A stretch of 52,398 nucleotides of DNA, from NCBI GenBank assembly GCA_004554105.1, contig SFNW01000001.1:1-52398 (forward strand), written 5' to 3'. The position numbers were made by a program, and so were the translations under genes. This document shows positions 1-51,871 of this stretch, piece by piece (the first letter of the stretch is position 1; every line of letters begins with the position of its first letter). Source of the DNA: Clostridiales bacterium. GTDB taxonomy: Bacteria; Bacillota; Clostridia; Oscillospirales; CAG-272. Under the pieces are notes generated by a model that was not told the origin of the DNA, did no database searches, and saw only the letters and a list, made by a program, of their open reading frames with translations.

Positions 1-1395
1 AAGCTGCAGGCGGAGCTGGAAAAAAGACGCAAGCATCATGTATCTCTTTGCATATCCGCAAAGAAAAAATACGATGATTTTTGTGCCAAGCGCCATACAA
101 TTCTTGAAAGGTTGCTTCCGAAGAAAAAGGCTGCCAATGATATACGCGCCGCAATATTGTTGGAGCAAGCCGAATGCTGCGCAAGAGAAGCAGAAGAATG
201 TTGTCGTCTGCTCAATGAAAAATGTTCGGAAACCGCCGCGCTTCGGAATGCGATTGCTGCTGAAAAACTGCCGGAGCAAAAACAAGCCTTACTTGATTTC
301 AAACACAGGGAAGGCTGCCCGCGGCAGCTTACCGCAGCCATTGTCGGCGTTCAATATGACGAAAGTTCTGCATTGCTGCACTGCCGCATAGACGATGCTA
401 TACTTGAAGCAATCCCTCCCGAAACAGTATATGAAGTTTCAACCGAAACACTCAAATACAGGTTGGCAGAATGCAAATCGCAGATTCATGTAATGGAGAC
501 GTGTCACAGCACTTTTGACTCCGCTCGTATTATCGCCGGAACACTTGACACCATCATAGGGAAATACGATTCTTTCTTGAAACGCAGCGGTGGGAATGTC
601 AGTCATGTGTTTATTGACGAGGCGGCGTATGCGCCGCTGACGAAAGGCATAGTCGCCTTTTCATTTGGCGCGCCCGTAACCTTTTTGGGCGACCATAAGC
701 AGATACCGCCCGTCTGTGAGATGGATGAGTACACCCTTTCTGCCGAAAACCAAAGTGTGGTCCTGTGGGCGCAGTCTGTTGTTCACTGCGAAGAGATTTT
801 CAGAAGTAGTATACCGCTTATTCTTGAAAATGCCCAAAGCAGAAAGCCGCCTGTATTGCCGGAAGGCTGTATGACCGCGCTCAATTATACGCACCGCTTC
901 GGTCAGAATCTCGCCGCCGTTCTTGCGCAATATGTTTACACCGGCGATTTTCACGGTGCGCCGAATGCAGATGTGAAAATCAAGGTTTTGAAATGCAGCC
1001 CGAAGCCGAAAGACATAAAAGATAAGATGAATCCGTGCGAGGCGAATGAAATTTCAAAATGTCTAAAAGAAAACAACTTTGAAGATGCTGCAATTTTAAC
1101 GCCCTATAAAGAGCAGGTCAAACTGCTGCAAAAGACAGTGCCTTTTGCGTATCGCGGCAACGTCATGACGATTCACGCATCGCAGGGAAGAGAATACGAC
1201 ACGGTAATCCTCAGTGTCCGTGACCGTATGCCGTGGTGGTTTACCGATTCCAACAATCTCAAATCAAACGGCAGAGCGGTTCTAAATACCGCGCTAAGCC
1301 GTGCGAAGAAGCAGCTGATTATCGCCTGTGACGAAGAGAGTTGGAAAGCATTTGACGGACAGTTACTTGCAGAGATTATTCGCCATGCTAATTGA
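1..1395 (+). CDS. Upf1/DNA2-like superfamily-1 helicase, C-terminal part (5' end lies outside the window)
   Basis: Frame 1 is open from base 1, so the track ORF 112..1395 starts at an internal TTG. Helicase motifs seen: FIDEAAY (motif II), GDHKQIPPV (motif III), TIHASQGREYDTVILS (motif V), LNTALSRAKKQLII (motif VI). No Walker A is visible, so the N-terminus must be upstream. Hand-counted GC is about 40-50% versus about 65% further right. Confidence 0.7.
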   Translation, partial: KLQAELEKRRKHHVSLCISAKKKYDDFCAKRHTILERLLPKKKAANDIRAAILLEQAECCAREAEECCRLLNEKCSETAALRNAIAAEKLPEQKQALLDFKHREGCPRQLTAAIVGVQYDESSALLHCRIDDAILEAIPPETVYEVSTETLKYRLAECKSQIHVMETCHSTFDSARIIAGTLDTIIGKYDSFLKRSGGNVSHVFIDEAAYAPLTKGIVAFSFGAPVTFLGDHKQIPPVCEMDEYTLSAENQSVVLWAQSVVHCEEIFRSSIPLILENAQSRKPPVLPEGCMTALNYTHRFGQNLAAVLAQYVYTGDFHGAPNADVKIKVLKCSPKPKDIKDKMNPCEANEISKCLKENNFEDAAILTPYKEQVKLLQKTVPFAYRGNVMTIHASQGREYDTVILSVRDRMPWWFTDSNNLKSNGRAVLNTALSRAKKQLIIACDEESWKAFDGQLLAEIIRHAN

Positions 1396-1573
1396 AAGAA
1401 AACCGCTCCCTTTGCTACTTGGTTCCGACAACCGAAAATCGACCGCCGCTCCGTCGGAGCGGCAGACAGAACGTCTGCATTTGTGCGGCGCTCTGCCTTT
1501 GCAAAATCAAAGTGCGACGCGGCGACAACCGTTACGTTCCGGTCGATTCGGGCGTAAAGGGCTCCGAGAGCAG

Positions 1574-3923: not shown

Positions 3924-3938
3924 AAAAGAGGAAGCAGA

Positions 3939-4223
3939 ATGACGCTGAACGAGCTGAAAATCGGGCAGTCTGCCGTCATCGTCGCCGTCGGCGGCGAGGG
4001 GACGCTGCGCAACCGCCTGATTGACATGGGACTGATTCCGCACACCAAGCTGACGCTGCGCAAGGTCGCGCCGATGGGCGACCCGATTGAAATTCTGATT
4101 CGCGGCTACGAGCTGACGCTCCGCCTCGAAGACGCGGCGAACATCACCGTCGAGATTACGGAGGAGGCAGCCCCCGCCGCACGCGCCGACGCCCCCGCGA
4201 AGAAAGGGGCGGGCAAACGATGA
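3939..4223 (+). CDS. feoA: Ferrous iron transport protein A (FeoA)
   Basis: MTLNELKIGQSAVIVAVGGEGTLRNRLIDMGLIPHTKLTLRKVAPMGDPIEI matches the FeoA SH3-like domain. It has an ATGA overlap with feoB. Confidence 0.9.
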   Translation: MTLNELKIGQSAVIVAVGGEGTLRNRLIDMGLIPHTKLTLRKVAPMGDPIEILIRGYELTLRLEDAANITVEITEEAAPAARADAPAKKGAGKR

Positions 4224-6232
4224 AATTTGCACTGACCGGCAACCAGAACTGCGGTAAAACCGCGCTCTTCAACACGCTGACCGGTATGCGCTGCCATGTC
4301 GGCAATTTCCCCGGCGTGACGGTCGAGCAAAAGGTCGGCGAAATCCGCGGCAAGAGCGGCTGCTCGGTTGTCGACCTGCCGGGCATCTACTCGCTGCGCC
4401 CCTACACGCAGGAGGAAATCGTCACCCGCGATTACATACTGAACGAAAAGCCCGACGGCATCATCAACATCGTCGACGCGACCAACATCGAGCGCAACCT
4501 GTACCTGACCATGCAGCTGCTCGAGCTCGACGTCCCGATGGTGCTGGCGCTGAACATGATGGACGAGGTGCGCGCGGGCGGCGGCACGATCGACGTTGAA
4601 AAGATGAGCCGCGAACTCGGCATTCCGGTCGTCCCCATCAGTGCGCTCAAGGACGAGGGCGTCTCCGAACTGATTGACCGCGCAATCGAAGTGGCAAAGC
4701 GGCACATTCTGCCGGTGCGCGCCGACTTCTGCGCCGCCGACTCGCCCTGTCACCGCTGCATTCACGCGGTCATGCACCTCGTGCAGGACCACGCAGCCGA
4801 AGCGGGACTGCCGCTGCGCTTCTGCGCGTCGAAGCTGATTGAGGGCGACAGCGACATCGCCGACCGACTTGGGCTCGACGAAAACGAGCGCGAGCTGATT
4901 GAGCACTGTCTCGTACAGCTTGAAGCCGAATCGGAACTCGACCGCAACGCCGCACTGGCGGATATGCGCTATTCCTTTATCGAGAGCGTCGTCGCCGCCT
5001 CGGTCGTCAAATGTAGCGAGAGCCGCGAGCATCGCCACTCGGTGGCAATCGACAAAATCCTGACCGGCAAATATACCGCGATTCCCGTCTTTCTCGGCAT
5101 CATTCTGCTGATTTTTTGGCTGACCTTCAACGTCATCGGCGCGGGACTGCAGCAGCTGCTTGAACTCGGCATCGGTCGGCTCACCGACATTGTCGATGCC
5201 GCGCTGACGAACTTCGGGCTGAACCCGGTCGTCCACAGCCTGATTATTGACGGTATTTTCAACGGCGTCGGCAGCGTGCTGTCCTTTTTGCCGATTATCG
5301 TCACGCTGTTTTTCTTCCTTTCGATTCTCGAGGACACCGGCTATATGGCGCGCGTCGCCTTTGTCATGGATAAGCCGCTGCGCCGTCTCGGGCTGTCGGG
5401 GCGCTCGTTTGTCCCGATGCTGATCGGCTTCGGCTGCTCGGTGCCTGCCGTCATGGCGGCGCGCACCGTCTCCTCCGACCGCGACCGCAAAATGACAATC
5501 CTGCTTGTCCCTTTCATGAGCTGCTCGGCAAAAATCCCGATTTACGCGGTCTTCACGGCGGCATTCTTCCCGGGGCACGGCGCGCTCGTCATGTTCGCGC
5601 TCTACATCACCGGCATTCTGCTCGCCATTCTCTCGGCGCTCTTCTTAAAGCGCACCTCGTTCCGCGGCAAGCCGGTGCCGTTCGTCATGGAACTGCCAAA
5701 CTACCGTTTCCCCTCTCCGCACAGCGTGGCGCTGCTGCTGTGGGAAAAGGCGCGTGACTTCCTCGAGCGCGCATTCTCGGTCATCTTCATCGCGACCGTC
5801 GTGATTTGGTTCTTGCAGAGCTTTGACTACCGTCTCAACCCGGTCGCCGACTCGACCGAGAGTATGCTTGCCGCCGTCGGTCAGGCAATTTCAATCCTTT
5901 TCAAGCCGCTTGGCTTCGGCGACTGGCGCTTCTCGACCGCGCTGATTTCGGGCTTTATCGCCAAGGAGCAGGTCGTTTCGACGCTCGCCGTCCTTGTCGG
6001 CTGCGACGCAAGTCTGCTCTACACTGCGCTGCCCGCGCTCTTCTCGTCGACGCTCGCCGCGTGCAGCTTCCTCGTCTTTACCCTGCTGTACACGCCCTGC
6101 GTCGCCGCCGTTGCGGCGATTCGCCGCGAGTTCGGCTCGCGCCTTGCCACGGTCGGCATTGTGCTGACGCAGTGCTGTGTGGCATGGCTGGTCGCGTTTA
6201 TCGTCTATACGATCGGAGGGCTGTTTGTATGA
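4220..6232 (+). CDS. feoB: Ferrous iron transporter B (FeoB)
   Basis: N-terminal G-domain GNQNCGKTALFNTLTG, DLPGIYSL and NMMD, followed by a polytopic permease domain. 670 aa. Confidence 0.95.
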   Translation: MKFALTGNQNCGKTALFNTLTGMRCHVGNFPGVTVEQKVGEIRGKSGCSVVDLPGIYSLRPYTQEEIVTRDYILNEKPDGIINIVDATNIERNLYLTMQLLELDVPMVLALNMMDEVRAGGGTIDVEKMSRELGIPVVPISALKDEGVSELIDRAIEVAKRHILPVRADFCAADSPCHRCIHAVMHLVQDHAAEAGLPLRFCASKLIEGDSDIADRLGLDENERELIEHCLVQLEAESELDRNAALADMRYSFIESVVAASVVKCSESREHRHSVAIDKILTGKYTAIPVFLGIILLIFWLTFNVIGAGLQQLLELGIGRLTDIVDAALTNFGLNPVVHSLIIDGIFNGVGSVLSFLPIIVTLFFFLSILEDTGYMARVAFVMDKPLRRLGLSGRSFVPMLIGFGCSVPAVMAARTVSSDRDRKMTILLVPFMSCSAKIPIYAVFTAAFFPGHGALVMFALYITGILLAILSALFLKRTSFRGKPVPFVMELPNYRFPSPHSVALLLWEKARDFLERAFSVIFIATVVIWFLQSFDYRLNPVADSTESMLAAVGQAISILFKPLGFGDWRFSTALISGFIAKEQVVSTLAVLVGCDASLLYTALPALFSSTLAACSFLVFTLLYTPCVAAVAAIRREFGSRLATVGIVLTQCCVAWLVAFIVYTIGGLFV

Positions 6233-40812: not shown

Positions 40813-41352
40813 TTATTCCTCGGGCAGCCCGTCCGCAAGCACCGTCACCGACGGCACCTGATGCCGGATATTTTCAATCATGCGCGCCGTCGCGTCAAAG
40901 AGCAGAGCCTCGGTGCCGTTCTCGGTCTCGTAGACGATGATATAGGCGTTTGCCGCATCGGGCGATGAGCGCAAATCAAGAATGCGCCGCGGCGAATACC
41001 CGCCCTCGATGCGCCCGTCCTTGTAGGGCGCGACCAGCCGCGCCGACTTCTTCAAGTCGACCGAGACGCGCTCCTTGCGGTACTGCTTGCAGTAGACCGA
41101 CGCCGCGTCGAAAATCCCCGCAGTCTGCGTATACTCGTATTCAATGAAAGAAAAGCGCGACAGATACCAGACAAGCGTGCCGAACAGCGTCAGCACAACT
41201 GCGCCGATGAACAGCCCCGCCGCGGGCAGGATAAACAGGAAAAAACAGACGACAAAGGCGAGCAGCGCAACCGAGACACACACAAGCAGCGCAAGATAGC
41301 GTCCGGCGCACGCTTTTTTGACCGCGTATTCGCAAAAATCGTGTTCGTACAT
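40813..41352 (-). CDS. Two-TM membrane protein of unknown function
   Basis: The ATG at 41352 follows GGGAGGG. The hydrophobic segments are LALLVCVSVALLAFVVCFFLFIL and LFIGAVVLTLFGTLVWYL. It is the first gene of the long minus-strand operon. Confidence 0.7.
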   Translation of the reverse strand: MYEHDFCEYAVKKACAGRYLALLVCVSVALLAFVVCFFLFILPAAGLFIGAVVLTLFGTLVWYLSRFSFIEYEYTQTAGIFDAASVYCKQYRKERVSVDLKKSARLVAPYKDGRIEGGYSPRRILDLRSSPDAANAYIIVYETENGTEALLFDATARMIENIRHQVPSVTVLADGLPEE

Positions 41353-41523
41353 GATTCCCTCCCGATTCGGAAAAGTCGAATTCATACACTTATCCCATTA
41401 TGAACAATTTAGTATACCATAAGAGCGAAGCAATTTCAATTATTTTTAGCAAATCTTCTTGAAACACAGCGGGTTTTATAGTATTATAAAATTGTATAAT
41501 TATGAAAAGAGGATAAAACCCAC

Positions 41524-41793
41524 ATGAAAGCAGTCATTACGGTCATCGGCAAAGACCAGGTCGGTATCATCGCCGCAGTCAGCGCAAAATGCGCCGAGTA
41601 CGACGTCAACATTCTCGAAATCACGCAGAGCGTCCTTGACCGCTACTTCGCCATGATTATGATCGCGGACATCGACGCGCTGAAGAGCAACTTTTCCGCA
41701 TTCTCCGACGCACTTTCCGCGCTCGGCAAGGAAAAAGGTCTCGAAATCCGCTGTATGCACGAGGACATCTTTGACTCGATGCATACTATCTGA
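41524..41793 (+). CDS. ACT domain-containing protein (UPF0237 family)
   Basis: MKAVITVIGKDQVGIIAAVSAKCAEYDVNILEITQSVLDRYFAMIM. 89 aa. It shows the canonical pairing with a UPF0210 gene. Confidence 0.9.
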   Translation: MKAVITVIGKDQVGIIAAVSAKCAEYDVNILEITQSVLDRYFAMIMIADIDALKSNFSAFSDALSALGKEKGLEIRCMHEDIFDSMHTI

Positions 41794-41814
41794 GCGCTGA
41801 AAGGACATTTTTCC

Positions 41815-43173
41815 ATGATTAACACCGCAGATATTCTCGAAACAATCAATATGATTCGCGAGGAAAACCTCGACATTCGCACGGTCACAATGGGCATTTC
41901 GCTCTACGACTGCGTCAGCGACAGTGTCGACCGCCTCTGCGATAACATTTACGCAAAGCTGATGCGCTGCGCGAAAAACCTCGTCTCCTGCTGCGAGGAG
42001 ATTGAAAAGCTCTACGGCATTCCGATTGTCAACAAGCGCGTGTCGGTCACCCCGATTTCGCAAATCGGCGGTGCCTGCACAAGCGAGGACTACATCAAGA
42101 TTGCCAAGACGCTCGACCGCGCCGCGCACGACCTCGGCATCAACTTCATCGGCGGCTTCTCCGCCCTCGTGCAGAAGGGCATGACCGTCGGCGCGGACAG
42201 GCTGATTGACGCGATTCCCGAAGCCCTTGCCGAGACCGACATGGTCTGCTCGTCGGTCAACGTCGGCTCGACGCGCGCGGGCATCAACATGGACGCCGTC
42301 GCGCGCATGGGCAGAACCGTCAAAGCGACGGCTGAGCTGACGCGCGACCGCGACGCCATCGGCTGTGCAAAATTCGTTGTCTTTGCCAACGCGGTGGACG
42401 ACAACCCGTTCATGGCGGGCGCGTTCCACGGCACGGGCGAGGGCGACTGCGTGATCAACGTCGGCGTCAGCGGTCCCGGCGTCGTCGAAAAGGCGATTCG
42501 CCGCGCGGGCGACTGCGATTTTTCGGCGCTCGCCGACGTCATCAAGAAAACCGCGTTCAAAATCACGCGCGTCGGTCAGCTCGTCGCCTGCGAAGCGGCA
42601 AAGCGGCTCGGCGTCCCCTACGGCATCGTCGACCTCTCGCTCGCGCCCACGCCCGCAATCGGCGACAGCGTCGCCTGCATTCTCGAATCCATGGGACTTG
42701 AGACCTGCGGCGGTCCGGGTACGACGGCGGCACTCGCCATGCTCAACGATGCGGTCAAAAAGGGCGGCGTCATGGCGTCGAGCCATGTCGGCGGCCTCTC
42801 GGGCGCGTTTATCCCGGTCAGCGAGGACGCGGGCATGATTGCCGCGGCGGAACAGGGTGTGCTCACGCTTGAAAAGCTCGAAGCCATGACCGCAGTCTGC
42901 TCGGTCGGGCTTGACATGATTTGCATTCCCGGCGACACCACCGCCGAAACCATCAGCGGCATCATCGCCGACGAAATCGCCATCGGCATGGTCAACGGCA
43001 AAACCACCGCCGTGCGCGTGATTCCCGCGCCCGGCAAGTCGGTCGGCGACCGCGTCGAATTCGGCGGTCTGCTCGGCTATGCACCGGTCATGCGCGTAAG
43101 CCCCGTCTCCTGCGAAAAATTCATCGCCCGCGGCGGACGCATTCCCGCGCCGATTCACTCGCTGAAGAACTAA
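41815..43173 (+). CDS. UPF0210 (DUF711, PFL-like) family protein
   Basis: [24 protein letters not shown] is present. 452 aa. It is adjacent to the ACT partner. Confidence 0.9.
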
Positions 43174-43361: not shown

Positions 43362-44477
43362 ATGGACGTCAAAATCTACGTCAACCCCGAATACAAGGAC
43401 GCGCTGTGGAGCACGCTTGCGATTCGCGCCATCAACATCGAAATCATGCGCAAGCGCTACACGCCTGTCTTTATCGACGCGCCCGAGGTCGGCGACATCG
43501 ACTTCGACCACCTCTACGCGCCGGGCGAAAAGCGGCTGATGATTTACATCGGCGCGTCGATTGCAGTCACGCCTGCGGTACTCGCCCGCTTCAACGACTG
43601 CGGCGTACACGTCGTCTTTCTCAATTACGAGTCGCCGAAATTGGTCAGCGGACACTCGAAGATTCTGCTCAACTACAAGGACGGTATGCGCAAGGCGATC
43701 AACTACCTCGTCGCCTGCGGCAGGGAAAACATCGCGCTCTACGGCATCAATCCCAATTCCTCGACCGATATGATCAAGGACGCGTTTTTCGCCGACTATC
43801 TCGGTCAGCGCGGCGGTAACCCCTCGCGCGACATTTACTACAACTACGCATCGCTGCGCGGCTGCTACGCCCGCTTTACCGAGAACTGCCACAGCTACAA
43901 CGCGGTCATCTGCGCCAACGACGTCGTCGCGCTCGCGCTTATCTGCCATCTGCGCGAAGCCGGCGTGCGCGTACCCGAGGACCTGTTCGTCGTCAGCTTC
44001 GGCTCAACCGTTCTCGCCTCGATGTCCAATCCCACAATCACCACGGTGGCGGTCGACCACGAGGAGCTGGGCAAGCAGGCAATCCTCGCCTACGCCTATC
44101 TCTACAAAAACCCCGGCGACATCACGCTGACCGCCAAGGTCGACGCCAAGCTGAATATTCGCGCCTCCACCGCCAATATGGAGAATCACGGCAAGGACAT
44201 TTTCGCCTCGTTCCTGCCGCAGACGCCAAACGTCAACTTCTACGACGACCCGGTTACACAGCGCGTTTTTGAGGCGGAAAGCCTGCTGCTCGGCTGCGAC
44301 GAGCTGGACCACGGCATTCTCGCGGGCATTCTCGCAGGCGAAACCTATCCGAGCATCGCAGAGCGGCTGTTCACCTCGGAAAACGTCATCTCCTACCGCA
44401 TCAAGCGAATGTGCAAAGCCACCGGCTGCAACAAAAAATCAGAGCTGGTCGCCCTGCTTTCGCCGTATATCAAATAA
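43362..44477 (+). CDS. Hybrid regulator: LacI-type periplasmic-binding-fold sensor domain with a C-terminal LuxR/GerE-type HTH
   Basis: No N-terminal HTH is present. The central region resembles the Peripla_BP fold (NIALYGINPNSSTDMIKDAFFADY, NAVICANDVVALALICHLREAGVRVPEDLFVVSFG). The C-terminus LDHGILAGILAGETYPSIAERLFTSENVISYRIKRMCKATGCNKKSELVALL is LuxR-type. Confidence 0.7.
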   Translation: MDVKIYVNPEYKDALWSTLAIRAINIEIMRKRYTPVFIDAPEVGDIDFDHLYAPGEKRLMIYIGASIAVTPAVLARFNDCGVHVVFLNYESPKLVSGHSKILLNYKDGMRKAINYLVACGRENIALYGINPNSSTDMIKDAFFADYLGQRGGNPSRDIYYNYASLRGCYARFTENCHSYNAVICANDVVALALICHLREAGVRVPEDLFVVSFGSTVLASMSNPTITTVAVDHEELGKQAILAYAYLYKNPGDITLTAKVDAKLNIRASTANMENHGKDIFASFLPQTPNVNFYDDPVTQRVFEAESLLLGCDELDHGILAGILAGETYPSIAERLFTSENVISYRIKRMCKATGCNKKSELVALLSPYIK

Positions 44478-44535: not shown

Positions 44536-45942
44536 TTATTTTTTGCTTTCCGCCGCAGCGTCTTTTTCCGCCGCTTCATTGGCAAGCCGCTCCTTTGCCG
44601 CGCGATAAGTCGCCTCCACGCGCCGCTTGAGCGCAGTCTCCTCGATTAAACGCTTTGCCTCGTCGCAGGCGTCGTGCCCTTCGTCCGGGCATTTCTTCAA
44701 CCGGATACAGCGCGGAAAAACGGGACACCCGCCGCACAGCGCTCGACTGTTCAGGTATGCGGAAAACTCCGTAACCTTCTCGGCGTTATTGACGCCGCTG
44801 TAGATGTCCCCGACGAACTCACTTTCCGCAAAGTGCTCACACTTTCCGATTTTCCCGCTCGGCAAAATCGTGACGGCACGCGGCGAATCCGCCATGCAAT
44901 GATTGATTTTGATTTCGTTTTCAATCGGTGCCGCTCGCAGCAGCCCCTTGTCCGCGCAATACTGCTCAAACGCAAGCAGTTCCTGCGCACGCGCAAGCCT
45001 TGCCGCAGAATCCTGCGCGACAATCCGATTCTGCGTATAGTCGAACAAAAGATGCGGATAAGCGGAAAGCAGCTCTCGCTCCGAATAACGCTCGCAGAGC
45101 CAATCAACCAGCGCGTACAAATCCTCTTTATTATGTTCGCCCATATTCATACGGACCGAGACGCGAATGCCGCTTTGCAGCAAGCGTTCGATATTATCGG
45201 TTACGACGCGAAACGCACTGCGCCCGTCTTTATAAATAAACGCTTTCGCTTTGTTATAAACGGCTTCGGTTCCGTCCAGCGTAATCTGCACACGGCGCAG
45301 CCGCCAAAGTTCTTTCGCCCGTTGAATCATCTCACTGTCAAACAGATAGCCGTTCGAAACCATTGCCGAACTGTATTCGGCGCCCGCCTCCCGCAAAGCG
45401 GTACAGATGATGTCAATCACGCCCGCATTGTACAGCGGCTCTCCGCCGAACCAATGCAGCGAAATCTTCTCCGAGCCGTGCGTGCGAAGAATAAAATCCG
45501 CAACGTCCCGCGCGGTCTGCTCCGACATGGGGACACGCGCCGTGCCCAGCTCATAGCAGTAAAAGCACCGTGCGTTACAGTCTGTGGTTGTGAAAATCGT
45601 GTAGCCGGACAGCCCCTTGTTTCTCTGCAAATCCCGCGCCAGCGCCCGCGCCTCGCAGGAAAGCTCAATGTCATCATGGTCGGTCGGCACCAAAAACCAT
45701 TTGCGGATAAGCGGCACGGCTGCCCCCTCCGCCGCCACCGTCTCTTTGCGAAGTACGGCGGCTTCGTCGGGCTCAAGCTCAAGCATTTCGCCGGTCAGCG
45801 TATTGTATGCGATGTCCGCGCCGTCCGCTTGGGTTAAAATGCTAAAGGAAATCGGGCGATAGATTTTATCTGTTTCAACCGGCTGCTCGCCAAGCAATTT
45901 TAAAAACAGTTTATCCTGCTGAACCAGTTCAAGCATCCGCAT
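44536..45942 (-). CDS. Radical SAM/SPASM-domain peptide maturase with an N-terminal ~100-aa (RRE/PqqD-like?) extension
   Basis: CNARCFYC (CX3CX2C), FGGEPL and ITLDG are present. SPASM-type Cys pattern HC-X13-G-X4-C followed by CGGCPVFPRCIRLKKC. SD GGAAAGGAAGGAA. The start overlaps the upstream ORF by 14 nt. Confidence 0.85.
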   Translation of the reverse strand: MRMLELVQQDKLFLKLLGEQPVETDKIYRPISFSILTQADGADIAYNTLTGEMLELEPDEAAVLRKETVAAEGAAVPLIRKWFLVPTDHDDIELSCEARALARDLQRNKGLSGYTIFTTTDCNARCFYCYELGTARVPMSEQTARDVADFILRTHGSEKISLHWFGGEPLYNAGVIDIICTALREAGAEYSSAMVSNGYLFDSEMIQRAKELWRLRRVQITLDGTEAVYNKAKAFIYKDGRSAFRVVTDNIERLLQSGIRVSVRMNMGEHNKEDLYALVDWLCERYSERELLSAYPHLLFDYTQNRIVAQDSAARLARAQELLAFEQYCADKGLLRAAPIENEIKINHCMADSPRAVTILPSGKIGKCEHFAESEFVGDIYSGVNNAEKVTEFSAYLNSRALCGGCPVFPRCIRLKKCPDEGHDACDEAKRLIEETALKRRVEATYRAAKERLANEAAEKDAAAESKK

Positions 45943-46654
45943 TTCCTTCCTTTCCGTGCGCTTTCATCCCGTCATACGCAACATGCGCCGCCTCGGGATT
46001 TATAGTACAGAAGAGCAAATAACACGGCACGGCTTGAATCAGGGCGTCTGCAAGTTCCATTTGACGTGCGAGATTGGTAGAATCGCTTACCATGATCTGA
46101 CCAAACAGTTTGGGAACAGCCTCCTCGGCGGAAATACGGCGGATTCCGTTCTCTGTTCCGCGCTTGAGAAAACAAAGACCGCAAAGCGGCACGCGGGTAT
46201 TGACATTATACCCCTCCTTGCCGCACCACGGCGTACCGTAAGCATAAATCTTGCCGTCGATTGCGCGCAGAATCGGCTTGTCCCCGTTGACAATCGTCAC
46301 CTTATCCTCGCCGAAAGCCTTTTGCCATAGGCGAATGTGTGTCGTCTTTCCGGTGCCGCTCGGCGCAGAGAACGCATAGCCGCGCCCCTCATATTCGATG
46401 ACCGCGCAATGCATCAAAAAAGCGTCGTGTGCAAGCGCATAGGCGCAAATTTTACGGTAAACGGCAAGCGATTCGCGCTCTTCATTCGGGATAACCGCGG
46501 TGCCGTCCCCCTCTGCCTGCATATCCGACGCTGTTACGCGAACGCAAAGGTCGACGCGCGGTGCGCTATCGCAGCGATATGTCTCGCACATTCTCTCCAG
46601 CTTCCGATACTGCGGCTCTATATCTATATAAAATCCCGCAATCTGATATACCAT
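45929..46654 (-). CDS. HPr kinase C-terminal-domain-like P-loop protein (putative peptide kinase/accessory protein)
   Basis: 241 aa. It has the Walker A motif SAPSGTGKTT followed by VNGDKPIL and YGTPWCGKEG. It is translationally coupled to the radical SAM gene. Confidence 0.65.
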   Translation of the reverse strand: MVYQIAGFYIDIEPQYRKLERMCETYRCDSAPRVDLCVRVTASDMQAEGDGTAVIPNEERESLAVYRKICAYALAHDAFLMHCAVIEYEGRGYAFSAPSGTGKTTHIRLWQKAFGEDKVTIVNGDKPILRAIDGKIYAYGTPWCGKEGYNVNTRVPLCGLCFLKRGTENGIRRISAEEAVPKLFGQIMVSDSTNLARQMELADALIQAVPCYLLFCTINPEAAHVAYDGMKAHGKEGNADA

Positions 46655-46736
46655 CGTGTTTTCCCCTGTAAATCTATCCTTTTATGCAGCAGAAATACTC
46701 TGTTATCGGTTTCGGTATATAAGCTCCTTAGAAGAA

Positions 46737-46778
46737 CAAAGGAGTGGAAAGACTCCACTCCTTTGCTTTCGGGCAAAA
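46737..46778 (-). terminator. Two adjacent stem-loops between the precursor ORF and the modification genes (partial terminator / mRNA-stabiliser)
   Basis: Minus strand: cttttgc-ccgaaa-gcaaag, then aaaggagtgga-gtctt-tccactccttt followed by GTTCTTCT. They begin 4 nt after the peptide stop codon. Confidence 0.55.
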
Positions 46779-46945: not shown

Positions 46946-46980
46946 ATGTATACATTACCACATATTTGCCGCTTTGTCAA
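46946..46980 (-). promoter_or_regulatory. Sigma-A promoter of the precursor gene (TTGACA-17-TGgTAATGT, extended -10) overlapped by palindrome ATGTATACAT
   Basis: -35 at 46975-46980 and -10 at 46952-46957. A 10-bp perfect palindrome lies at 46946-46955. Confidence 0.65.
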
Positions 46981-47047
46981 TACAAATCTGTAAGTTTTTT
47001 ATAAATCGCGGCTCATGCAGAGCCGCTGTCCCGAGCGTCCCCTGCGC

Positions 47048-47076
47048 AAAAAAGCACCCCGAAGGGTGCTTTTTTG
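47048..47076 (-). terminator. Rho-independent terminator after the 429-aa ORF
   Basis: aaaaaagcaccc-ttcg-gggtgctttttt (minus strand), 9 nt after the stop codon. It insulates the peptide cassette from upstream transcription. Confidence 0.85.
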
Positions 47077-47084
47077 TATTGGGA

Positions 47085-48374
47085 TTACTGCGCCAAATAA
47101 GCCTTTGCCATGTCGCTGTAATGCATGATCGAGTAGTACAATACGCGAAGGGCTTCGGGATTGCTCAGCGCCTGTCCCGTCGTCGCCGTGTACTCAAAGC
47201 CGTCAAGGTAGTGCGTCTTCAGTACGCGCGACTGCGCTTCCGTGCCGTATCCGCTGTAGATGTTGATCGTCAGCTTCTGTCTCAGGTTCGCCGCCGACAA
47301 CCGATCCAGCTTGACAATCGGCATACTGCCGCTCGTGTTCCACTCGCTGCTCGGAATGACAACCGTCTGCGCTGCGCCCAGATAGTCGGTATACTCGCAG
47401 ACAAACGTAAGGTCGCTGTAGTCCTTGTTCGCTGTATCCGCAGGTCTCAGCGTGATGTTGAGAACGATCTTATCCAGCAGTTCACCCGTGATCTTCGTCG
47501 CCGTGAAGACTGCCGTCTCGCCCTCTACCAGTTCGTCAATCGTTCTCGTTCCGGCCAGCACCGTATCGCTGCTGTAGTCTGCAAGGCTGCTTCTCTGCAG
47601 CTCTGCAGCAAGGCTTGCGTTGACGAGGTTCGCCGTGTTATAGCCGAAATTGGTCTGCGCCGCCGCACCGTAGTTCAACAGTGCCGCCGCGAGATTCATC
47701 TCCGCATCGCCCGTCGCGCCGAACTCATACAGCTTCGCCGCTATCGAGTTGTCGCTCAGCGTTCTGTAATCGACCGTGCCGTCCGCATTGATGCCGTAGA
47801 ATGTTACGCGGATTGTGTTACCCATGCAGGACGCCGGTATGCCGTCCGCAACATAGATATACGTGCTGCCTTCCAAAACCTTATCCGTAATAATCAGGCG
47901 TCTTGCCTTCGCATCCGCCGTCGGGGACGTGATATCGCTTCCGTCCGCGCTGCAAAGGTCAATGACCGCATAGAACGCTTTATACGCATCTACAGTCGCC
48001 TGGCGTGCCTGAATCTTATACTCGACCGAAGACTTCAGTACCAGCGTCTGCTTTGAGAGAATCGCGCTGTTCTCGGTCACCGCATTCGGGCGAACGATTG
48101 CCATGACGGCTGCGGGCGTATACTTTACGATCGTGTCTTCAACGATTGCATCGCCGGAGCGCATATATCTGCCCGTGACGTCGAGCGTGTACTCGCCCGA
48201 AACCGTGATGCCACTGTAGTCGCCTGCGAGGTAGCAATTTTCCGCCGTATAGGTATGCGCGCCGGAGGAAACCTCAAACGTCCCGCAATACCGGCAATTC
48301 TTGCACAAAGTCGGGCTTTTGCGCCTTTTTCGCCGAATTTCGCCGCAAATCGCCCCGCAAGTCGGGCTGCGCAC
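47085..48374 (-). CDS. Hypothetical Thr/Ala/Ser-rich protein with a Cys-rich N-terminus; start uncertain
   Basis: Long ORF whose composition resembles cell-surface proteins. The N-terminus reads TCGAICGEI...LCKNCRYCG. No signal peptide and no strong SD are present at the GTG at 48374. Confidence 0.5.
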   Translation of the reverse strand: MRSPTCGAICGEIRRKRRKSPTLCKNCRYCGTFEVSSGAHTYTAENCYLAGDYSGITVSGEYTLDVTGRYMRSGDAIVEDTIVKYTPAAVMAIVRPNAVTENSAILSKQTLVLKSSVEYKIQARQATVDAYKAFYAVIDLCSADGSDITSPTADAKARRLIITDKVLEGSTYIYVADGIPASCMGNTIRVTFYGINADGTVDYRTLSDNSIAAKLYEFGATGDAEMNLAAALLNYGAAAQTNFGYNTANLVNASLAAELQRSSLADYSSDTVLAGTRTIDELVEGETAVFTATKITGELLDKIVLNITLRPADTANKDYSDLTFVCEYTDYLGAAQTVVIPSSEWNTSGSMPIVKLDRLSAANLRQKLTINIYSGYGTEAQSRVLKTHYLDGFEYTATTGQALSNPEALRVLYYSIMHYSDMAKAYLAQ

Positions 48375-48469: not shown

Positions 48470-51400
48470 TTACTTTACAATCTTGTAAACCGTCATCTCG
48501 AGCGCGCCGTTCGAGTAGGTTGCGGTAGCGGTAAGCTCAACCGTAATCTCCTCGTAGTCAGCTTCTTTCTCGAAGGTTGCAAGGTCTGCATAATCGCCGT
48601 ACTCAACGTCTGCGGCAGGAACGATAATCGTCTTGCCTGCGAACTCGTTGACGAAGTTATCGAATACGCCTGCAGCAGGCTCGACAACATCTACAACCTC
48701 ATCTGCAGCAAGTGCATAGAAGAAGTAGCTGTCTGCGTATTCCTGCATCAGAGCGACATCCTTGTAGGTCTCCTGATCCTCTTCGGAAGCGGAATCAGCA
48801 AGGATTGCGTTCTCGTAGTCGTATGCCTTCGTGTCAATACCGGTAACATCGAGCGTTACAACCTTGATATTGATCTTCGTGACATCGTCTGCGCTGATTT
48901 CGGGATCAGCAAGGCCGATCGACTCACCGTCAACGAAGTTCATGCCCTTGAGGTCAACAACCTTGACATTCTCGTCGTCAGCGAGCTTCTTTGCTGCCTC
49001 GGCAACAGAGAGGACGCCCTCTGCGGCAAGAACACCGTTGTCGTTGAGGTACAGGAGGTCGCCGCCGACAACCTTGTTGAATGCGTCAGCATCCTTGTAG
49101 GTCTCAACGTTAACCGTAACGGCGTCAACCTTCTTCAGGGTTCTGAGGTCGAACAGGTTAGCAACGGTTACATCGTAGGTCTCATCGTCAGCGATGTTGA
49201 TATCGACGTCAACATCGGCAAGAGCTACATAGTAGGTAGCATCTGCGCTTGCGCCGACAGACTTGCCCCAGTCAGCAAGCTTCTTGATCTCATCGTTCTT
49301 GAAGGTCGTCTTTGCGCCCGTGATATCCATCAGGATCAGCGAGGAGTTCGCGGAGAGAACCTTAACCTTGTCGAAGCTTACGGATCTGCTTGCCTTCTGT
49401 ACGCCGGTGCGAACTGCAACGGTCGTGCCGTCAACGAGGACGATAACCGTGTCGCTAGCGAGCGATACACGAGCAGCATCAACATCGTTGTCGGTCGTGA
49501 GCATGTTGGTCTTAACGCTGGTATCCGAGAAGGTCAGAGCCTTGTTGGAAGCAACTGCTTCGGTACCGAATGCGAGGAAGTTGCCGGAGTAGATGTCAAC
49601 ACCGGGGGTGTCTTCAAAACCGTCGGTGTTGCCGGCGAGGTCATATACGCCGTTCTTCTCGTCAACTACGAGGAAGATTGCAGCGCCGGTCAGAGCGCCC
49701 TTGATGTCAACAAGCGCTTTATGATCCTTGTACGAAGCACCGATCATGTCTTCATACTTTGCGAGGGTTGCAACGTCCTTGCTCGTCTCGAAGACTTCGT
49801 CCTCAGCGTCAAATGCGCCGTAGTGGAAGTTCTTCAGCGAAGCAAGCTTCCAGTTGCCGGTTGCCTTGTCGAGAACTGCGATAGCAACGTAGCCGTTGTC
49901 ATCGATGTACAGACCCGAGGTCAGCGAAGCGTTGTACTTGGAAACGGTCAGGCCGAGCAGGTCTGCCATGGTCTCCTCATCAACCGTTACAACTGCGTAA
50001 TCGAAGATTGCGCCGTCGCTCGAAGAAGAGCCGTCAACAACTTCCATGTAGACGACGTTGCCGTCAGCCTCAATGTACTTAACGTTGTTCTTGCCTGCGG
50101 TCAGAGCAGCGGTGAACTCGGTTACGTCGAACGCAGCCAGCTTGTCAGCCAGGTCGCCCGCGAACGCGCCCTTGAAGCCGACAGTCTTGTTTGCACCGTC
50201 GATCTTAACGGTCGAGTTCTTGGAGTTCGCGCCGGTCAGTCTGCCTTCCTTGAAGGCACCGTTGTTCTGCGCAACGGTCAGAATGTTATCAACAGCGTTG
50301 TAGCTGTAGAATACGAAGTCGCCGGACTTAACCGATTCGCCCTCGAGCGTAACGGCCATAGCCTTTGCACCTGCATTCTTGGAAACCGAAGTGGTGGACT
50401 CGCTGACCTTTGCAGCCGACTTCGTCGTTGCACCTACGAGGTACTCAACAAAGTTGGTCGACTCGCCGTCGAGGTTCTTATAAGCGGTCGCATCATACTC
50501 ACCGATGGTCGTGAAAGCCACATCCTTGCTGGTGGTCTGATAACGGAGCGTACGGGTGAAGTACTGACCGAACGAATAGGGCGTGTAGAGAACAACTACA
50601 ACGTCGGCAACGACGTCGTCCTTCGTGTCATCGGTGCCCTTGTCGTCAATGGTAACGTCCTCTTCAACGTAGTACTGAACCTTACCGTTGGAGTTGGTAG
50701 CGTTATCGTAGCCGTCCTTGGAGTCATAGACAAATGCGTCAAAGAACGCATCGGCAGCGGTGTTGGAGAATGCCCAACCATCCTCGGTGAAGGTTGCAAC
50801 GACCACAACCGTGTTCTTTGCGGTGAACTTCGTGCCGCCGAGCGTCAGCGTGTCTTCGGTAGCCTTGATGTTGCCTGCGTTGCCGAGGTTTTCAACCGTG
50901 GTAAAGGTCTTGAACTCAGCGTAAACGACAGCAGCCTCAGACTCGTCTGCATCGGTGCTGTACTTCGCCTCGAAGTCCTTAGCAGCGACGTCAACAAGCA
51001 GAGTTACGGGCAGACCCAGGTAACCTACCTTCGGGGTCTTTGCCGTGATGCCGAGGTCAGCAGCTGCGAGCGTCAGAGTGCCGACTTCGGACTCGACGAC
51101 AACGGTATCGACCTCGTCGTCGTTCTCAGCCTCAACGAACTCGGTGATAACGCCTTTGATCTTGCCCGAAGCGTAGCCCGCGTCCTCAAGGAGGGTAACG
51201 CGCTCAATCGGCTTAGCGTTGGGGTTGCCGGAAAGAAGCGTATCAGTCAAACCGGTTTCGCCGGGGTACAGGATCTTGTCGCTCAGCGGATCGACAACTG
51301 CGATCTCGGTGTTGAGCATGTTCCACATGATCTGCGAGGTCTCACCTCTGGTCAGAGGAGCGGTGTAGTTGACCGTCTTTGCAACATCGTCGGTCAGACC

Positions 51401-51871
51401 CAGCTTCTGAGCAGCGAGGATGTAGCCGTAAGGATAGGACATATCCTCGGTCTCGTAGCCGAGCGCGCGGACTGCCATAACGAGCATATCCTGATAGGTG
51501 ATCGGGTCGTTGTAGCCGAAGATACCGTTGCCACGACCTACGACAAGCTTTCTGCCGTAAGCGTAGTCAATCGCGGTGCCGTACTCAACGACATCCTTGA
51601 AGTATGCGCTCGTCTTCTGTGCGTTCCAAACGTCTACCGAAGTCTCTCCGGAAAGCGCCTGAACGAAGAACAGAGCCGCCTGATAACGGGTAACGCCATT
51701 ATCAAGCATCAGATTACCGTTGTCACCCTTCATAATCTTGAGGGCAACAAGGTGCTGCGCAGCGTCGGTATAATCAGCCGTCGTGTCCGCAGCGCCGGTC
51801 GTAATGACTGCTACGCTCAGGATCATGAGCGTCGCCATTACGAGCGAGAGAAATTTCTTGAAGTTTCTCAT
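48470..51871 (-). CDS. Large SLH-domain cell-surface (S-layer-type) protein
   Basis: Signal peptide MRNFKKFLSLVMATLMILSVAVITTGAA. Three N-terminal SLH-like repeats (FKDVVEYGTAIDYAYGRKLVVGRGNGIFGYNDPITYQDMLVMAVRAL and others). About 900 aa of Thr/Val/Asp/Ala-rich sequence follow. Codon usage is strongly biased. Confidence 0.85.
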   Translation of the reverse strand: MRNFKKFLSLVMATLMILSVAVITTGAADTTADYTDAAQHLVALKIMKGDNGNLMLDNGVTRYQAALFFVQALSGETSVDVWNAQKTSAYFKDVVEYGTAIDYAYGRKLVVGRGNGIFGYNDPITYQDMLVMAVRALGYETEDMSYPYGYILAAQKLGLTDDVAKTVNYTAPLTRGETSQIMWNMLNTEIAVVDPLSDKILYPGETGLTDTLLSGNPNAKPIERVTLLEDAGYASGKIKGVITEFVEAENDDEVDTVVVESEVGTLTLAAADLGITAKTPKVGYLGLPVTLLVDVAAKDFEAKYSTDADESEAAVVYAEFKTFTTVENLGNAGNIKATEDTLTLGGTKFTAKNTVVVVATFTEDGWAFSNTAADAFFDAFVYDSKDGYDNATNSNGKVQYYVEEDVTIDDKGTDDTKDDVVADVVVVLYTPYSFGQYFTRTLRYQTTSKDVAFTTIGEYDATAYKNLDGESTNFVEYLVGATTKSAAKVSESTTSVSKNAGAKAMAVTLEGESVKSGDFVFYSYNAVDNILTVAQNNGAFKEGRLTGANSKNSTVKIDGANKTVGFKGAFAGDLADKLAAFDVTEFTAALTAGKNNVKYIEADGNVVYMEVVDGSSSSDGAIFDYAVVTVDEETMADLLGLTVSKYNASLTSGLYIDDNGYVAIAVLDKATGNWKLASLKNFHYGAFDAEDEVFETSKDVATLAKYEDMIGASYKDHKALVDIKGALTGAAIFLVVDEKNGVYDLAGNTDGFEDTPGVDIYSGNFLAFGTEAVASNKALTFSDTSVKTNMLTTDNDVDAARVSLASDTVIVLVDGTTVAVRTGVQKASRSVSFDKVKVLSANSSLILMDITGAKTTFKNDEIKKLADWGKSVGASADATYYVALADVDVDINIADDETYDVTVANLFDLRTLKKVDAVTVNVETYKDADAFNKVVGGDLLYLNDNGVLAAEGVLSVAEAAKKLADDENVKVVDLKGMNFVDGESIGLADPEISADDVTKINIKVVTLDVTGIDTKAYDYENAILADSASEEDQETYKDVALMQEYADSYFFYALAADEVVDVVEPAAGVFDNFVNEFAGKTIIVPAADVEYGDYADLATFEKEADYEEITVELTATATYSNGALEMTVYKIVK

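Follow-up and report, generated by a model that had tools for sequence, protein, structure and literature searches.

What might be the role of the P-loop protein that is encoded next to a radical S-adenosylmethionine (rSAM) maturase on contig SFNW01000001.1 of a Clostridiales bacterium (GCA_004554105.1)? In the 52,398-nucleotide stretch of this contig that we analyzed, here called the window, the gene of a 41-residue peptide with a leader is followed by that of an HprK-like protein of 241 residues, which in turn overlaps the gene of the rSAM protein. With moderate confidence, we read the HprK-like protein as a catalytically competent phosphotransferase of the fold common to HprK/P and phosphoenolpyruvate carboxykinase (PEPCK), which would act as a dedicated tailoring enzyme and O-phosphorylate the co-encoded leader peptide. 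What we observe are the fold, the conserved catalytic residues, the coupling of the genes, a family of related peptides, and the association of the enzyme family with genes for the handling of peptides.

Homologs of the HprK-like protein are abundant. A 90%-clustered database holds 1619 of them, an exhaustive search retrieved 8199 representative clusters at E<=1e-3 and 4939 at 1e-10, and more than 590 species genomes carry a relative; the named hosts are all metagenome-assembled genomes of gut or rumen Clostridia, and the product label is always 'hypothetical'. Together with a confident structure prediction, these numbers argue for a real gene rather than a chance open reading frame (ORF). The AlphaFold2 model, computed with 42 homologs as input, reaches a predicted local distance difference test score (pLDDT) of 93.5 and a predicted TM-score (pTM) of 0.89. 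In a Foldseek comparison with the PDB, its top nine matches are L. casei HprK/P chains (E ~2e-6, probability 1.00, TM 0.46-0.57 on target length), and the best 50 consist solely of the HprK/P kinase domain, from L. casei (1kkm, 1kkl, 1jb1, 2qmh), Coxiella (3tqf), S. xylosus (1ko7) and M. pneumoniae (1knx), and of ATP-dependent PEP carboxykinases, at a probability of ~1.00; no unrelated P-loop family occurs among these 50. Structure-based identity to HprK/P and PEPCK is 13-15%. The comparison of the predicted structure with the HprK C-domain thus upholds the HprK-like label of the original prediction, with HprK/P as the best match, while support at the level of sequence is weak.

In a scan with NCBIfam models, the protein matches ScmC (TIGR04249) at E=5.8e-5 and 22.6 bits, below the cutoff of 125, as well as HprK_rel_B (E=0.011) and HprK_rel_A (E=0.018), and in the same scan it does not match TIGR00679 (HPr kinase/phosphorylase). 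Its relatives reach 22-36 bits against the ScmC model. The ScmC-like character proposed earlier is supported in that ScmC is the best relative among the hidden Markov models (HMMs). Precomputed annotation places PF27840 ('ScmC') on the window protein and on nearly all homologs, with matches ranging from 'faint' to unmarked. A Pfam scan of the ORF, run with a copy that does not contain PF27840, gave no meaningful match, Hpr_kinase_C included, and a PDB sequence search with the single protein returned chance P-loop matches alone, e.g. guanylate kinase and BmrA. A profile of the family aligns with PDB HprK at E=0.78 (MHGavieyeGkGYlFtAkSGtGKT versus MHGvlvdiyGlGvLitGdSGvGKS), and in this alignment, which is diagnostic in spite of its E value, its P-loop falls onto the HprK P-loop GDSGVGKS.

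About 75 residues alone precede the kinase core and the MurE-like N-terminal domain of HprK is absent, the chain comprising 241 residues versus ~310; in this point, too, the original prediction was correct. Around 40 positions are invariant in the 42 homologs, down to 47% identity. Among them are H82, S99, G102, K103, T105, H106, W110, the stretch N123-G-D125-K-P127, R130, the motif G140-x-P-W-x-G-K-E147 (GTPW.GKE), R165, N169, Q186 and D191. The Walker A motif APSGTGKT, described as intact at the outset, is so in the 42 homologs, with S99, G102, K103 and T105 in the invariant set. By manual alignment, D125 stands at what we take to be the position of the catalytic Asp of HprK/P, in the Asp pair of its 'ADD' motif, and for the catalytic residues of HprK we presume the roles commonly assigned to them. 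As the His, the P-loop Lys and the Asp of the NGD motif are invariant in the 42 homologs, a non-catalytic role is unlikely. Judged by sequence and model, the protein is very probably a phosphotransferase that has the HprK/P-PEPCK fold and an intact catalytic site, lacks the N-domain of HprK and distantly resembles ScmC.

The presumed substrate of this enzyme likewise belongs to a family. The precursor in the window, MKYVAPAAELVSVETVEIIASSTCPTYNPSCPTDMGEEEMS, consists of a leader (residues 1-22, MKYVAPAAELVSVETVEIIASS) and a core (TCPTYNPSCPTDMGEEEMS) whose terminal residue is Ser41. A profile built from six precursors collected 36 peptides, in which the leader, MKY[VT]APVAEL[VL].[VL]E.[VI].V.L.S, is near-invariant and Ser22 invariant. 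Their cores have 10-30 residues, most with one or two Cys in motifs of the type C-[P/A/G]-x-[D/N/E/Q], followed by [L/M/T]-[P/G] and then by an acidic tail, a pattern that would fit a putative ranthipeptide-like cross-link from Cys to Asx/Glx. In one of the peptides, P0282 (QVEECNPDCPNELPEE), Ser22 is the last residue with a hydroxyl, and the same holds for the junction Ser in the Cys-less peptides of the distant relatives L032 and L070. Ser22 is the sole hydroxyl common to every associated peptide, and the acidic residues beside [L/M]-[P/G] are the only core feature common to all of them.

The rSAM protein has a Cys-rich C-terminus of the SPASM type. Its best NCBIfam matches are TIGR04463, Clo7bot, CefB, PapB and the geopeptide maturase model, and since every one of these falls far below its equivalog cutoff, the protein may represent a new subfamily. 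Models of maturases of peptides that are made ribosomally and then modified post-translationally (RiPPs) align from about residue 35 onward and so span an N-terminal extension of the leader-binding type; the N-terminal ~110 residues presumably form a RiPP recognition element (RRE). The only solved structure matched is the thioether synthase CteB (5wgg, E=2e-9).

In the mechanism we propose, the precursor would be bound via its conserved leader, probably by the N-terminal domain of the rSAM protein, by the HprK-like protein with its N-terminal subdomain of 75 residues, or by both. The CteB/PapB-like rSAM/SPASM enzyme would most likely cross-link the pair of Cys residues in the CPx(x)[DN] motifs, and the HprK-like enzyme would, independently of this step, transfer a phosphoryl group from ATP (or pyrophosphate) to an oxygen of the peptide. 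As candidate acceptors we regard Ser22, the invariant residue where leader and core meet, and a residue in the conserved [D/E/N/S]-[L/M]-[P/G]-acidic tail; with the tail as target, the phosphate would be placed on a hydroxyl where one is present, or on a carboxylate. The translational coupling of the two genes, recognized from the beginning and seen here as an overlap of 14 nt, suggests that the two enzymes form a complex, and the product may combine phosphorylation with rSAM cross-links, as first envisaged.

That the two proposed modifications may be separable is indicated by the comparison of two loci. L006 and L105 are syntenic, both encoding a surface protein with a domain we refer to as X, the peptide, a small S-layer homology (SLH) protein, the HprK-like protein and a convergent aminotransferase. 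In L006, an rSAM gene follows the HprK-like gene and the peptide contains Cys (...DCPNNNSMGDEEL). In L105 (contig JAZSKM010000125.1), 73 nt stand at the position of the rSAM gene, no such gene is found in the 9.5 kb covered, and the peptide is Cys-less (...DNSGNNMGGSDDL); the HprK-like gene (P0033) has kept all invariant residues. L107 also has a Cys-less peptide, with no rSAM gene between the SLH and HprK-like genes, and its contig ends 82 nt after the latter. Conversely, the peptides contain Cys in 10/10 distinct rSAM loci. Cys tracks the rSAM gene, and the HprK-like enzyme tracks the peptide, which is the main argument against a scaffold that serves the rSAM protein and for an enzyme that acts on a feature other than Cys. 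The HprK-like enzyme thus appears to act independently of Cys cross-linking.

What do the neighborhoods of the wider family add to this? In the subclade with at least 50% identity, a precursor with the leader MKY[VT]APVAEL... lies just upstream of the enzyme in every locus that has enough flank. Coupling to an rSAM gene is limited to this subclade of about 50% identity or more (window, L001-L007, L085-L089, L106, L108, L109), where the genes share 1-14 nt (1-8 nt in the relatives) or are separated by 4-13 nt, in inverted order in L108; as a trait of the whole family it was rejected, and most members have no rSAM neighbor. At L109:2131-4924, two tandem rSAM genes of 453 residues each follow the HprK-like gene, recalling the paired maturases of the ScmC cassette. 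About 90 more distant loci have a PqqD gene alone (10), a peptidase gene alone (14), both (32), in another 10 also NTP_transf_5, or none of these (26), so that in ~66 of them the HprK-like gene is followed by a PqqD-type chaperone and/or a signal-peptidase-like S24/S26 protease. The usual order is HprK-like, PqqD and S24/S26 (signal-peptidase-I-like) protease, after which an ABC transporter and NTP_transf_5 sometimes come; operons of the PqqD/protease type are carried by L009-L104 at 36-50% identity (e.g. L047:817-5329, L039:3991-5444, L070). In naturally fused proteins, the HprK-like domain is combined with PqqD (P0254), Peptidase_S24 (P0160), NTP_transf_5 (P0147, P0178) and Y_phosphatase3 (P0170), and the last of these, a Tyr/Ser-type phosphatase, favors phosphoester chemistry for the HprK-like enzyme.

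Some ten of the distant loci also have peptides nearby with a related leader, E..F[ED].[ED]DVI[TA][TA]S. Those of L032, L047, L070, L065 and L081 are Cys-less and acidic, with upstream peptides reading ...DVITTSDDDDITMPEI (L047), ...DVVTASDAAPDDMGMIVP (L070) and ...DIITASDGGGLDEDELPPVVIG (L032). Loci of the HprK-like/PqqD/protease type look like an undescribed, kinase-defined peptide system, and the pattern of neighbors argues that the family acts on leader-bearing peptides. At L040:5457-7196, L042:~3935-5404 and L045:2343-5653, likewise among these ten, the HprK-like/PqqD/S24 genes lie beside a CcpM-like rSAM gene and Cys-rich peptides of a different family (leader ...AEV.LFDNSDVITTSG...), which may constitute a second, independent association of the HprK-like family with rSAM maturases.

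An additional layer is provided by the surface proteins. Between the peptide and enzyme genes, L006, L105, L107, L108 and L109 encode an SLH-domain protein of 250-280 residues that bears a signal peptide (in L110 it is cut), and in 5/5 complete loci its C-terminal tail matches that of the operon's own peptide (Table 1). Cognate tails score higher together than permuted ones: only 2 of 120 arrangements reach the cognate sum, and they differ only by a swap of the closely related L107 and L108. The codons of the shared tails carry synonymous differences, and beyond the stop codon the similarity is gone, which argues against recent gene conversion as its source and for a match maintained by selection at the protein level. 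The X domain, of ~385 residues, directly precedes the precursor gene in eight loci (window, L001, L085, L086, L089, L105, L108, L006), forms the C-terminal end of large surface-type proteins and has no Pfam or NCBIfam match. These findings suggest that the peptide has in its tail a recognition element which a protein anchored to the cell wall also carries; what recognizes it might be the HprK-like enzyme or else a partner at the surface, for instance the X domain. In a speculative extension, which we consider unlikely, the HprK-like enzyme rather than the rSAM protein would define a family of peptide systems, widespread among gut and rumen Clostridia and so far undescribed. The enzyme would phospho-modify short, acidic peptides that co-evolve, in their C-terminal tail, with the SLH tail, and the modified peptide would be a mimic or competitor of that tail, e.g. 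for binding to the X domain. If true, this would tie a RiPP-like pathway to the assembly of, or signaling at, the cell envelope.

The same observations can be turned toward a different substrate altogether, be it the SLH tail, the X-domain protein, the rSAM protein itself or a small molecule, with the peptide merely co-regulated. The cassette is syntenic with the X-domain surface protein and, in a sub-branch, with the small SLH protein, the tail matches include every complete locus, and many distant relatives have no recognizable precursor nearby. However, the window contains neither a tail-matching protein nor a small SLH gene at all, the SLH and X proteins are exported and the enzyme has no signal peptide, and the commonest partners of the family are leader-binding chaperones of the PqqD type, which point to leader-bearing peptides. 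We therefore hold a substrate other than the peptide to be doubtful.

If the peptide is the substrate, the acceptor might also be a carboxylate. The acidic residues near [L/M]-[P/G] are common to all peptides, including those of P0282, L032 and L070 that have no hydroxyl beyond the junction Ser, and PEPCK, an enzyme of the same fold, phosphorylates a carboxylate-derived or enolate oxygen; both would be in keeping with an enzyme that activates the C-terminal carboxylate or the side chain of an Asp or Glu. The resulting acyl-phosphate would be resolved by an intramolecular or external nucleophile, through cyclization, imide formation, ligation or cleavage, and no stable product of +80 Da would result. 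For such chemistry, however, no precedent is known in the HprK branch, the operon encodes no partner enzyme that could deliver a nucleophile, and the fusions to a Tyr/Ser-type phosphatase and to NTP_transf_5 fit a stable phosphoester better, making carboxylate activation distinctly doubtful.

The acceptor favored in the original prediction was the C-terminal Ser, by analogy with the kinases of lasso peptides. The HprK-like fold fits this analogy, the peptide of the window does end in Ser, as was stated, and HprK homologs from lasso clusters modify such a residue with little specificity for the remainder of the peptide (PMC8498205). The peptide family speaks otherwise: the 36 precursors end in D (12), E (7), L (6), I (4), N (2), G (2) and, once each, in M, F, A and S, the lone Ser being that of the window, and yet the active site is invariant across the partner enzymes. 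Moreover, a conserved Ser at the C-terminus of the precursor is what defines lasso-kinase clusters (PMC8498205), and no lasso cyclase or B protein is found nearby. Phosphorylation of Ser41 in the manner of lasso kinases is thus very unlikely; as a rule for the family, the acceptor would, going by the precursor sequences, not be this residue, and while it may be modified in this one organism, nothing requires it. The alternative acceptor that had been named, a Ser or Thr within the core, retains its place where such residues exist, and fails as a universal target on the peptides of P0282, L032 and L070. As for a scaffold or chaperone without catalytic function, which would stabilize the peptide or present it to the rSAM protein, the last of the earlier suggestions, the tight coupling of the two genes and the ScmC-type proteins that accompany rSAM/SPASM pairs without a known activity would suit it, but we regard it as most improbable given that H82, K103, T105, D125 and ~35 other positions are invariant, the Lys and Thr of the Walker A motif and many other polar residues among them, that the rSAM protein has a leader-binding-type extension of its own, that the gene is intact in L105, where the rSAM gene is gone, and that most of the family has no rSAM neighbor.

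The O-phosphorylation of the leader peptide that we prefer has to be weighed against several points. That the enzyme is a kinase, that it acts on the peptide and which residue is the acceptor are inferred from sequence, model and analogy, and the similarity in sequence to any characterized kinase is marginal (E of 0.78 for HprK, 22.6 bits for ScmC). Apart from Ser22, no single hydroxyl residue occurs in all of the peptides, and Ser22 itself might just as well be invariant as the -1 residue of a leader-peptidase site: A, T or L at -3 and S at -1, a pattern of the signal-peptidase type, fits the peptides of the rSAM and PqqD/peptidase types alike. Protease, transporter and PqqD genes are all absent from the window. 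The argument from the loss of the rSAM gene draws on one unambiguous locus, L105. Finally, most relatives that lack an rSAM gene have no recognizable precursor within 4 kb, and the substrate across the family might not always be a small peptide.

Table 1. Positions of the features discussed; all refer to the window unless a locus is named.
Feature	Position	Strand	Basis or remark
HprK/P-fold, ScmC-like P-loop phosphotransferase (predicted), 241 aa	45929..46654	-	ORF listing, homologs, model; ATG start, purine-rich ribosome-binding site AGGGGA 8 nt upstream
Walker A / P-loop, A97-PSGTGK-T104	46343..46366	-	read from sequence
Invariant His82 in LMH motif, aligned with the His of HprK 'MHG' that precedes the P-loop	46409..46411	-	42-homolog alignment and profile alignment
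Invariant N123-G-D125-K-P127 motif	46274..46288	-	42-homolog alignment
14-nt overlap of HprK-like stop and rSAM start (translational coupling)	45929..45942	-	sequence ATGCGGATGCTTGA
Radical SAM/SPASM peptide maturase, 468 aa	44536..45942	-	Pfam Radical_SAM 5.9e-17
CxxxCxxC motif of the rSAM protein	45556..45579	-	C122, C126, C129
Precursor peptide gene, 41 aa	46782..46907	-	sequence; GGAGG 11 nt before ATG
Strong hairpin and U-rich tract between precursor and enzyme genes	46731..46770	-	folding and terminator scan
Promoter-like site upstream of precursor gene: TTGACA, 17-nt spacer, TG-n-TAATGT	46952..46980	-	read by eye; weak
Terminator of upstream gene, clean	47047..47070		
ORF with conserved ~385-aa X domain, 429 aa, directly upstream of precursor gene	47085..48374	-	no Pfam or NCBIfam match
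SLH-domain surface protein, 1133 aa, upstream of X-domain ORF	48470..51871	-	Pfam SLH E=1.8e-5, 25 bits vs cutoff 20.8
SLH gene, L105	1982-2773		peptide tail GNNMGGSDDL; SLH tail GNNMGGSDDL
SLH gene, L006	~715-1549		peptide tail NNNSMGDEEL; SLH tail DNNSMGDVEL
SLH gene, L108	885-1637		peptide tail NELPSYEEE; SLH tail NSLPPIYEE
SLH gene, L107	447-1274		peptide tail NELPPVEEE; SLH tail NSLPFIEEE
SLH gene, L109	569-1363		peptide tail EDMLEEF; SLH tail EDELEEF
X-domain ORF, L001	27-1694		
X-domain ORF, L085	2-2548		
X-domain ORF, L105	3-1670		
X-domain ORF, L108	2-499		
X-domain ORFs, L089 and L006			

The three genes of the window form a unit that is bounded by the terminator and the by-eye promoter-like site upstream of the precursor gene (Table 1); a consensus promoter scan reported no promoter, this site included. 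The ribosome-binding site of the rSAM gene, GGAAAGGAAGG, lies within the 3' end of the HprK-like ORF. Between the precursor and enzyme genes, the hairpin has a folding energy of -27.7 kcal/mol (z = -4.86), and 0 of 200 shuffled sequences are equally stable. It probably acts as an attenuator or partial terminator that sets the ratio of precursor to enzymes; an intergenic attenuator is a common route in RiPP operons to an excess of precursor over enzymes.

Further upstream, the X-domain ORF starts 96 nt after the stop codon of the 1133-residue SLH protein. In the relatives, the X domain ends incompletely sampled ORFs of 761-849 residues or more, and the two ORFs of the window may be one gene or a split gene. 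On the other side of the cassette, a convergent gene (43362..44477, +) encodes a regulator with a periplasmic-binding fold of the LacI type (Peripla_BP_3), which has weak C-terminal matches to a helix-turn-helix (HTH) domain of the LuxR/GerE type in place of the N-terminal HTH of LacI. In L001, L002, L106 and L089 this gene likewise stands in synteny with the cassette, and DUF711 and ACT genes come after it there as they do in the window (41524..43173). A predicted membrane protein of 190 residues (40813..41385, -) has the C-terminus ...LADGLPEE, whose loose likeness to the [D/N]-x-L-P-acidic tail of the peptide family may be a coincidence. Between the cassette and a CNNM/CorC gene, L108 (3845-3964) and L109 (5056-5175) share a conserved ORF of 39 residues, MGDGSLADGNLREN.FYI..FE..LKP.LFRFLQTCLIS, which may be a regulatory RNA miscalled as an ORF.

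How does this cassette compare with known systems? Kinases of the HprK fold are proven tailoring enzymes of RiPPs in lasso peptides only, where they act on the C-terminal Ser. The HprK homologs of lasso clusters phosphorylate this residue in precursors that share little beyond it, and in the K/N pairs, K makes the phospho-Ser, the phosphate of which is then glycosylated by the nucleotidyltransferase N (PMC8498205). By its predicted role, the window protein is most like PadeK, ThcoK, SyanK and PsmK (with PsmN) in being a stand-alone RiPP tailoring enzyme of the HprK fold, and the precursors are linear and leader-bearing in both cases; the wider HprK-like family, moreover, recalls the K/N pair in that its members lie beside, or are fused with, NTP_transf_5, and also PqqD. 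In contrast to the lasso kinases, however, it has no lasso cyclase (Asn-synthetase-like) or B1/B2 protein at its side. Its partner is an rSAM/SPASM protein, and its neighbors are the precursor, the LacI-type regulator, the X-domain protein and the SLH protein. One in 36 precursors ends in Ser, and the Pfam Hpr_kinase_C threshold is missed, the separation from lasso kinases being drawn by cluster features. In the literature that we surveyed, only lasso-peptide papers were relevant; neither ScmC, nor HprK-like proteins in rSAM RiPP systems, nor the leader seen here was covered.

ScmC is a protein of the SynChlorMet cassette, encoded with the paired rSAM/SPASM maturases ScmE and ScmF. As the best HMM relative of the window protein (TIGR04249; PF27840), it is likewise HprK-like and adjoins an rSAM/SPASM gene; yet the score of 22.6 bits stands against an equivalog cutoff of 125, the window has one rSAM gene rather than a pair, the hosts belong to a different clade, the gut Clostridia, and neither the ScmE nor the ScmF model is among the 25 best NCBIfam matches listed for the rSAM protein. 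With the C-domain of HprK/P and with ATP-dependent PEPCK, its best structural matches, the protein has the stretch MH..G.G...SGxGK[ST] in common. It is not an HPr kinase, as the MurE-like N-domain, the HMM match and a context of HPr or the phosphotransferase system (PTS) are all absent, and the GTPW.GKE and TH..W motifs belong to the HprK-like family only. Ranthipeptide/SCIFF-type systems (CteB, PapB), in turn, share with the cassette a K-x-x-x-P...E...E leader, a short acidic core rich in Cys and in Asp, Asn and Glu, and a SPASM maturase, that of the window being closest to CteB. Nevertheless, we know of no HprK-like partner in ranthipeptide clusters, and here, as seen in L105, the rSAM gene is less constant than the HprK-like one.

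Against this background, the new element is a putative HprK-like RiPP kinase that has an rSAM partner and would choose its target by a different logic. The locus belongs to a family much larger than that of the lasso kinases, no member of which has a name or a known reaction. The identity of its acceptor would define a new logic of post-translational modification and give ScmC-type proteins a first function; the product could be a phosphorylated, perhaps further glycosylated, thioether peptide, or one with a phosphorylated junction Ser. The co-evolving tails of peptide and SLH protein, finally, suggest a role at the cell surface of abundant gut Clostridia.

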